Shown here piece by piece: positions 15,898-30,777 of a stretch of 30,777 nucleotides of DNA. The notes under the pieces were generated by a model. The model saw only the letters and a program-made list of their open reading frames with translations, searched no databases and was not told the DNA's origin. Positions within the stretch are counted from its first letter, which is position 1; each line of letters opens with the position of its first letter. The DNA lies in the NCBI GenBank assembly GCA_048938295.1, contig JBHLMI010000027.1, forward strand, positions 4,650-35,426, in the 5' to 3' direction. A program made the position numbers and the translations under genes. Source of the DNA: Promethearchaeota archaeon. GTDB taxonomy: Archaea > Asgardarchaeota > Hermodarchaeia > Hermodarchaeales > Hermodarchaeaceae.

Positions 15898-16006
15898 TGG
15901 TGGGCCGAGAGGGACTCGAACCCTCGACCATCGCGGTGTAAGCGCGATATCATAGCCCTCTAGTCTAAGAGAATATCCTCCTCTCAGATAGCTAGACTAT
16001 CGGCCC
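15898..16006 (-). tRNA. tRNA-Val(TAC) with a 32-nt D-loop BHB intron (15989-15958, 17/18)
   Basis: Spliced GGGCCGATAGTCTAGCT/GGCTATGATATCGCGCTTACACCGCGA...CCCACCA. BHB: CTAG/CTAG helix, bulges CTA and AGG, intron stem TCTGAGAG/CTCTTAGA. Confidence 0.93.
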
Positions 16007-30438: not shown

Positions 30439-30540
30439 TTATTTGAAGGTATACCTGCTCAATAGATTAATCATTCGGAGAAGGTGGGTGTGTTTGGAAT
30501 CGGATGCATATAAGCCAAAAAATGTTTTGCCATCCGAGAG

Positions 30541-30579
30541 AGCTGCTGGTCGTGGGTTCAATCCCCGCTCGAGGCTCCA
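30541..30579 (+). tRNA. Orphan tRNA 3' half (nt 38-76), probably Thr(CGT)
   Basis: A-GCTGC-TGGTC-GTGGG-TTCAATC-CCCGC-TCGAGGC-T-CCA. No 5' half in the adjacent sequence; preceded by CGAG-AG (BHB half-site) and followed by a T-rich tract. Confidence 0.7.
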
Positions 30580-30610
30580 TTTTCTTATTTTCAAGTAGAC
30601 TTTCAAGACT

Positions 30611-30617
30611 AAAAAAA
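30611..30617 (-). terminator. Oligo-T terminator after tRNA-Leu
   Basis: T7 run 2 nt downstream of CCA. Confidence 0.55.
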
Positions 30618-30619
30618 GA

Positions 30620-30730
30620 TGGTGCGGGGGCCGGGCTTCGAACCCGGGAACTCCTACGAGACAGGATCTTAAGTCCTGCGCCTTTGACCAAGCTTGGCTG
30701 TGGGGTCTACGAATGGGTAGATACCCCCGC
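30620..30730 (-). tRNA. tRNA-Leu(TAA) with a 23-nt BHB intron at 8/9 (30722-30700)
   Basis: Spliced GCGGGGGT/AGCCAAGCTTGGTCAAAGGCGCAGGACTTAAGATCCTG...CCCCCGCACCA. Strict BHB: GGGG/CCCC helix, bulges GTA and ACA, stem TCTAC/GTAGA. Confidence 0.9.
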
Positions 30731-30777
30731 GGCTTAGTCTTCGGGACGCTGACCCTTGGACAGGTCCCCCGCACAGC

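Follow-up and report, generated by a model that had tools for sequence, protein, structure and literature searches.

How can a tRNA intron be excised when its splicing motif is built from the 5' strand of the acceptor stem? The question is raised by a locus at the end of a 30,777-nt stretch of DNA, here called the window (G000:C35:4650-35426), that holds what is apparently the only tRNA-Leu(UAA) gene of a Hermodarchaeota (Asgard) genome. The cutting signal at this locus, a BHB motif, uses the tRNA's own 5' acceptor strand, so that the BHB competes with the acceptor stem; in the thermodynamic models described below, the folding problem is that the BHB is unable to form while the acceptor stem stands. 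The folding conflict of an acceptor-strand BHB is unaddressed in the accessible literature on non-canonical tRNA introns. The locus is laid out as follows, in window coordinates, from the start of the leader to the presumed end of the transcript:

30766..30772, minus strand: GCGGGGG, a leader repeat of the 5' acceptor strand (leader copy) that lies 42 nt upstream of G1, recognised from conservation, folding and promoter spacing
30740..30765, minus strand: middle of the leader with the block UCCAAGGGUCAGCG, conserved in 17 homologues; forms a local hairpin or pairs with exon 2
30732..30739, minus strand: leader segment GACUAAGC, positions -9 to -2, complementary to the D-loop stretch and extending the 2-bp outer helix
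30723..30730, minus strand: exon 1, tRNA positions 1-8 (GCGGGGGU), from sequence reading and ARAGORN; invariant in all homologues
30700..30722, minus strand: BHB intron of 23 nt between tRNA positions 8 and 9, from sequence, in silico splicing, motif enumeration and homologue pairing
30620..30699, minus strand: exon 2, tRNA positions 9-76, with anticodon UAA, a long variable arm, A73 and an encoded CCA
30686..30693, minus strand: D-loop stretch GCUUGGUC, the partner of the leader in the precursor, from folding and homologue pairing
30624..30630, minus strand: 3' acceptor strand CCCCCGC, for which the leader copy and the real 5' strand compete in the folding models
30611..30619, minus strand: U-run directly 3' of the CCA, likely an archaeal terminator

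Positions G1 to U8 of the tRNA correspond to 30730-30723 and A9 to 30699. Read on the minus strand from 30722 to 30700, the intron is composed of A, UCUAC, CCAUUC, GUAGA, CCCC and AC, in that order. The motif is a strict hBHBh', with a helix on either side of the BHB: G1:C11 and C2:G10 form the outer helix, G3-G6 pair with CCCC in a central helix of 4 bp, and UCUAC/GUAGA forms an inner helix of 5 bp. Two 3-nt bulges, G7 U8|A and A C|A9, lie on opposite strands and are each cut after the second base. No tRNA was detected at the locus by ARAGORN or Rfam in the raw, unspliced DNA, and excision of exactly the 23 nt at 30722-30700 yielded a perfect 88-nt tRNA-Leu(taa) cloverleaf in ARAGORN. Among 21 BHB-like candidates enumerated in the precursor, a full-length class II tRNA-Leu(UAA) was obtained only by excising the 8/9 intron alone; one further variant accepted by ARAGORN, with the 8/9 intron and a second candidate both removed, was a truncated 74-nt call. 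The intron at 30700-30722, and its BHB with G3-G6 as central and G1-C2 as outer helix, had been proposed in an initial annotation made from the sequence, which was exact to the base for the intron and is borne out for the motif by the homologues described below. Unlike the pieces of a split or permuted tRNA, the leader, exon 1, intron and exon 2 follow one another on a single strand, without gaps and in the usual order.

Contig C35 ends with the window. Its last 77 nt (window 30701-30777) are identical to C19:1-77, so that contigs C35 and C19 join; the promoter of the Leu(UAA) gene is located in C19, and an EndA paralogue lies approximately 3 kb further on (C19:2925-3185). Two EndA open reading frames are encoded in the genome (PF01974 matches at C1:9416-9670 and C19:2925-3185), together with RtcB (567 bits) and a standard archaeal RNase P RNA (177 bits).

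Two other incomplete tRNA signals were seen in the window. On the plus strand, 30500-30592 holds a lone tRNA 3' part consisting of a T-arm, the acceptor 3' strand UCGAGGC and CCA; it is situated between tRNA-Thr(UGU) and the Leu(UAA) gene, with no matching 5' strand nearby. On the minus strand, 15901-15958 gave a weak Rfam tRNA match (32 bits over 58 nt) and is probably another interrupted tRNA gene.

Relatives found by exact pattern were MAGs named Candidatus Hermodarchaeota (Asgard). The homologue set comprises 17 distinct sequences from two genera, g1 (the same genus) and g2 (a sister genus). A gene with an insert at the same site was present in nine further g1 genomes (10 copies), in all four g2 genomes searched and on three more metagenome contigs. 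The exons were invariant except at two exon-2 positions, variable in g2 only. Across the 17 homologues, 95.6% of cells of the whole proposed structure paired and three pairs showed two-sided compensatory changes; in slid controls, with the partner moved by 1-3 columns, pairing dropped to 19-44%. The helix between the leader copy and the 3' strand is left out of these pair counts and was judged by anchored extraction, as MAFFT misaligns the G-run of the copy. The outer helix did not vary and the central helix was paired in 100% of cells, the H' variants CCCC, CCUC and CCCU always keeping their pairing with G3-G6; compensatory changes in the inner helix were seen within g1 (UA/AU and CG/AU). In g2 the intron has shrunk to 14-16 nt and a loop replaces the inner helix h', giving the relaxed form of the motif. 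In some relatives the intron both begins and ends with U, which places the boundary at 8/9 and not at 9/10.

Two features vary among these genes. One relative, G006, carries two intron-containing Leu(UAA) copies approximately 4.5 kb apart, L008 (G006:C36:7305-7415) and G006:C36:2717-2824. The 3' CCA is encoded in most g1 genes; the gene of G011 and those of g2 (L010-L014) encode only CC, followed by a U-run.

The conserved site, the failure to find a second Leu(UAA) gene and the presence of EndA, RtcB and RNase P RNA suggest a working gene whose intron must be spliced, and from its sequence the gene is very probably functional and spliced at 8/9. The spliced junction had no match in metagenome and metatranscriptome contigs, which are uninformative for tRNAs.

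How the BHB might form at all was addressed by folding. According to the initial annotation, the acceptor stem could not form until splicing had occurred. The models reverse this logic: in a precursor starting at G1, the 7-bp acceptor stem had a probability of approximately 1 and the BHB a probability of 0. In all 17 leaderless sequences, the strict BHB lay 10.6-14.8 kcal/mol above the native acceptor state.

The precursor is predicted to carry more than the tRNA. Upstream of G1 is a conserved leader of 42 nt (30731-30772, minus strand) that opens with a second copy of GCGGGGG, a feature absent from the initial annotation. A TATA-like box lies approximately 31 nt before this copy, and in other tRNA genes of the genome the distance from box to G1 is roughly 25-31 nt; given this spacing, like that of an ordinary G1, transcription very probably begins at the leader copy or no more than a few nucleotides from it. 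Mean pairwise identity of the copy was 96.5% and fell to 46.7% over the preceding 12 nt and to 50% over the following 10 nt. The helix between the copy and the 3' strand cannot show two-sided covariation, because the acceptor stem is invariant. The 8-bp helix between leader and D-loop paired in 96.3% of cells across the 17 homologues, with one compensatory pair (A-U in 13 sequences and G-C in four, the latter being g2 sequences with the D-loop GCCUGG), three one-sided, wobble-compatible changes, and mismatches at two positions in five sequences. The middle of the leader formed a hairpin in single-sequence MFE structures, and was paired by RNAalifold, without covariation, with the D-stem 3' strand and anticodon-stem 5' strand of exon 2. 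Comparison of the leader with the 5' half of the tRNA, scored by alignment relative to shuffled sequences, gave p values of 0.02, 0.37 and 0.09, and an origin of the leader as a decayed duplicate of the 5' half was not established.

With the leader included, the in silico balance was inverted. All 17 sequences now favoured the strict BHB, by 4.1-10.4 kcal/mol, which corresponds to a swing of approximately 17-20 kcal/mol. In 14 precursors the leader copy was predicted to pair with the 3' acceptor strand CCCCCGC (p 0.83-1.0) and the real G-run with the intron, G1C2:G10C11 forming with p 0.77-1.0; the leader:D-loop helix had a probability of approximately 1.0 in ten g1 precursors and of 0-0.93 in four g2 precursors. 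RNAalifold, with no structure supplied, likewise predicted both the copy:3'-strand helix and the leader:D-loop helix. In the Leu model a slipped register, G4-G7 with CCCC (p ~0.9), was preferred over the strict BHB (p 0.02), so the enzyme would have to select the strict register. After in silico splicing the two-dimensional model still placed the leader copy on the 3' strand, with a preference of 1.4-5.7 kcal/mol, and hand-over to the real 5' strand before RNase P would therefore need tertiary tRNA folding or proteins.

The same layout was found in two other genes of the genome. When tRNA genes were scanned for the presence of two candidate 5' strands, only three real tRNAs emerged among approximately 40 tRNA-like genes, namely Leu(UAA), Leu(CAA) and His(GUG), and all three carry an 8/9 intron together with a leader copy of their own acceptor strand. 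In constrained scans a strict copy was present in none of the others among these ~40 tRNA-like genes, and the first ~16 positions of the other recovered tRNA genes, judged by eye, were uninterrupted. These tRNA-constrained scans replaced an unconstrained genome-wide scan for 8/9-type BHB motifs, which gave 2076 mostly spurious matches. Under a relaxed criterion (six pairs, G-U allowed), two more tRNA genes showed an upstream 'copy'; both were judged to be chance matches, and the one at C19:4277 sits upstream of its TATA-like box.

The tRNA-Leu(CAA) gene (C51:14373-14561, plus strand; L044) contains four intervening sequences, at 8/9, 31/32, 38/39 and 59/60, and removal of all four leaves a perfect 88-nt Leu(caa) cloverleaf; three introns is the maximum cited for Thermoproteales in reviews. 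The tRNA-His(GUG) gene (C61:64793-64960, minus strand; L043/L046) contains three introns, including one of 30 nt at 8/9, and its exon sequence GCCGGGA is preceded, 13 nt upstream, by the leader copy GCCGGGG. In silico, the His leader raised the probability of the central helix from 0-0.22 to 0.67-0.96 in 10 of 13 orthologues, and that of the pairing between copy and 3' strand to approximately 1 in 11 of 13. In three orthologues (L055, L056 and L060) the leader occupied the 3' strand in the model and the central helix had a probability of 0-0.02. C-to-U changes in the His copy preserve a G-U pair with the 3' strand.

Two further observations concern the His genes. The tRNA-His(GUG) gene has A73 and does not encode G-1: U precedes G1, and G-1 would need to be added after 5' processing. 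The 8/9 intron of L060 (G017:C13), the only g2 His gene to carry one, differs in sequence from those of g1, and its central helix has 3 bp and an A-G mismatch; the leader copy is present. From these differences, this intron may have been gained independently at the 8/9 site.

The His genes also allow the joint occurrence of copy and intron to be followed. In the g2 genomes G015, G016 and G018, the His gene has neither the 8/9 intron nor the copy, and the promoter abuts G1; both features are present in G017, in G000 and in all 12 g1 relatives with a recovered His 5' region. The tally is thus 14 genomes with both, three with neither and none with only one, representing few independent events. 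A copy is also absent from the AT-rich DNA upstream of L015, a Leu gene that belongs to another family and has no intron. Copy and intron could co-occur because they share an origin, and not because of function. The alignment places the leader copy at the ancestral G1 position, so copy and intron may have arrived together, which we regard as a lead only; that placement would be a clue to intron gain, through an insertion that brought its own copy of exon 1.

On such grounds the upstream copy might be a scar, left when a new exon 1 and intron were inserted downstream of the old exon 1, and might have no role in splicing. G1 of intron-less genes lies equally far from the TATA-like box; it is the copy, and not the exon, with which the intron-less His genes of G015, G016 and G018 align; and the copy in the His gene L058 repeats exon 1 perfectly over 8 nt. 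A functionless scar nevertheless fits poorly with a copy that is 96.5-100% conserved across two genera between flanks that are both 35-50% identical, whose substitutions keep the pairing with the 3' strand, and whose leader also carries the covarying D-loop helix; nor is the rest of the leader significantly similar to the tRNA 5' half (p 0.02-0.37). We consider this explanation unlikely, while noting that an origin as a scar and a present function are mutually compatible. It is far harder to accept that the upstream copy is the mature 5' end, with spacer, second copy and intron removed as one large intron, although CCCC could pair with G3-G6 of either copy and in L058 both routes yield the same product. 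All Leu homologues would then have A or C, not U, at position 8. At position 7, the upstream copy carries C or U in two Leu homologues and G, C, A or U among the His homologues, and the downstream exon copy is invariant, which identifies the downstream copy as the mature strand. There is, moreover, no inner helix beside the upstream copy, and the strict hBHBh' motif exists for the downstream copy only. With the wrong base at position 8, a variable position 7 and no BHB between two identical strands, the repeat-flanked large intron was rejected as highly improbable.

The two remaining alternatives bear on whether, and when, the intron is removed. If the locus were an unspliced pseudogene, UUA would be read by a tRNA from elsewhere, the outcome named in the initial annotation as one that would refute it, and an assembly that is 91.6% complete leaves some room for such a gene. 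No other Leu(UAA) candidate was found in that assembly by BLAST (blastn-short), by ARAGORN with introns or by scanning for UAA anticodon arms; across the two genera the exons stay invariant as the intron loop and flanks drift, and the helices carry compensatory changes. A pseudogene is scarcely credible on this evidence. Alternatively, the ends might be processed first and the endonuclease might capture a rare BHB conformer of the leaderless precursor, the leader being irrelevant to the order of events. Two-subunit archaeal endonucleases accept relaxed motifs, which would favour such capture, but the energy gap of 10.6-14.8 kcal/mol separating the leaderless strict BHB from the native acceptor state makes it quite improbable.

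The explanation that we favour is that the leader helps the intron to be spliced. The 42-nt leader would be transcribed from a start at the leader copy, as the promoter spacing suggests. Its first seven bases, repeating the acceptor 5' strand, would pair with the 3' acceptor strand, and its last bases would pair with the D-loop and so lengthen the 2-bp outer helix. The real 5' strand, thus freed, would pair with the intron and offer the BHB to the splicing endonuclease. RtcB would join U8 to A9, the real acceptor stem would presumably then displace the leader copy, and RNase P would remove the leader. We consider this account of the gene as a whole, intron and leader helper together, to be reasonably probable. 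A function of the leader as decoy and helper, judged from the folding models, has a probability only marginally lower. For the broader proposal of a dedicated cis-acting Asgard leader, in which a sense copy of the acceptor strand and a stretch antisense to exon 2 make acceptor-adjacent introns spliceable and enforce splicing before RNase P, we regard the case as evenly balanced.

The initial annotation had held that splicing must precede end-processing by both RNase P and RNase Z. If the leader is needed for the BHB, a cut by RNase P at -1/+1 would, if it came first, trap the native, unspliceable fold, and splicing would have to come before it. Splicing before RNase P fits the architecture, as removal of the leader abolishes the BHB state in silico, and is plausible from the models, though as an inference and not as the necessity first stated. 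The corresponding claim for RNase Z is unsupported: leader copy and 3' strand still present an acceptor-like helix, which when stacked on the T-arm resembles an acceptor arm, so that no argument about order follows for RNase Z or 3' trimming.

A leader that resolved the folding conflict would add a new type of cis-acting element to pre-tRNA processing. With such a leader, splicing and 5' maturation would have to follow a set order, and the persistence of introns at positions thought nearly forbidden would be explained. For annotation, standard tRNA finders miss such genes, an essential Leu(UAA) decoder going undetected in this genome, and the leader copy can mislead calls of the 5' end. The matched His genes with and without the intron in sister genomes offer a handle on the gain of BHB introns.

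Non-canonical BHB introns are well known in Thermoproteales (2008 work, reviewed in PMC4090602), where the positions named are 20/21, 22/23, 25/26, 29/30, 30/31, 45/46, 53/54, 56/57, 59/60 'etc.', with 3/4 described as 'extreme'. The intron described here resembles these in being a short BHB intron at a site other than 37/38, predicted to be removed by EndA with joining by RtcB, and in lying near the 5' end, as does the one at 3/4. It differs in that 8/9 is not among the positions named, in agreement with the rarity claimed in the initial annotation for introns so near the 5' end, in that its host is an Asgard archaeon, and in that a dedicated 5' leader, of a kind not described in that review for cis-introns, supports the motif. 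Some Asgard archaea have introns in most of their tRNA genes (PMC11291895; bioRxiv 10.64898/2026.10.13.758758). Many of those introns are non-canonical or multiple, and standard finders miss the genes, as they do at the present locus. Neither report uses the word 'leader'; their subjects are Atabeyarchaeia, Freyarchaeia and others, and acceptor and junction introns are lumped in the census as 'the few' or 'other' cases.

Reviews discuss tRNA leaders only for split and permuted tRNAs. No paper describing a leader decoy of the acceptor strand was found, and a literature phrase search on an intron at positions 8 and 9 gave nothing relevant. In the split tRNAs of Nanoarchaeum equitans and Caldivirga maquilingensis and in permuted tRNAs, a leader or trailer outside the mature tRNA builds the helix flanking the BHB, much as is proposed here. 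Unlike the trans-spliced tRNAs, the Leu(UAA) precursor is one transcript, its leader pairs with exon 2 and the 3' acceptor strand and not with the trailer of another transcript, and the leader would be removed by RNase P rather than by the splicing endonuclease. By analogy, the nearest functional counterpart would be the leader/trailer duplex of trans-spliced halves, with the helper of Leu(UAA) acting in cis and carrying a sense copy of exon 1. The intron at 8/9 is genuine, and published catalogues rarely show one there; combined with the leader copy, it represents a new form of BHB-intron architecture whose proposed mechanism can be tested.
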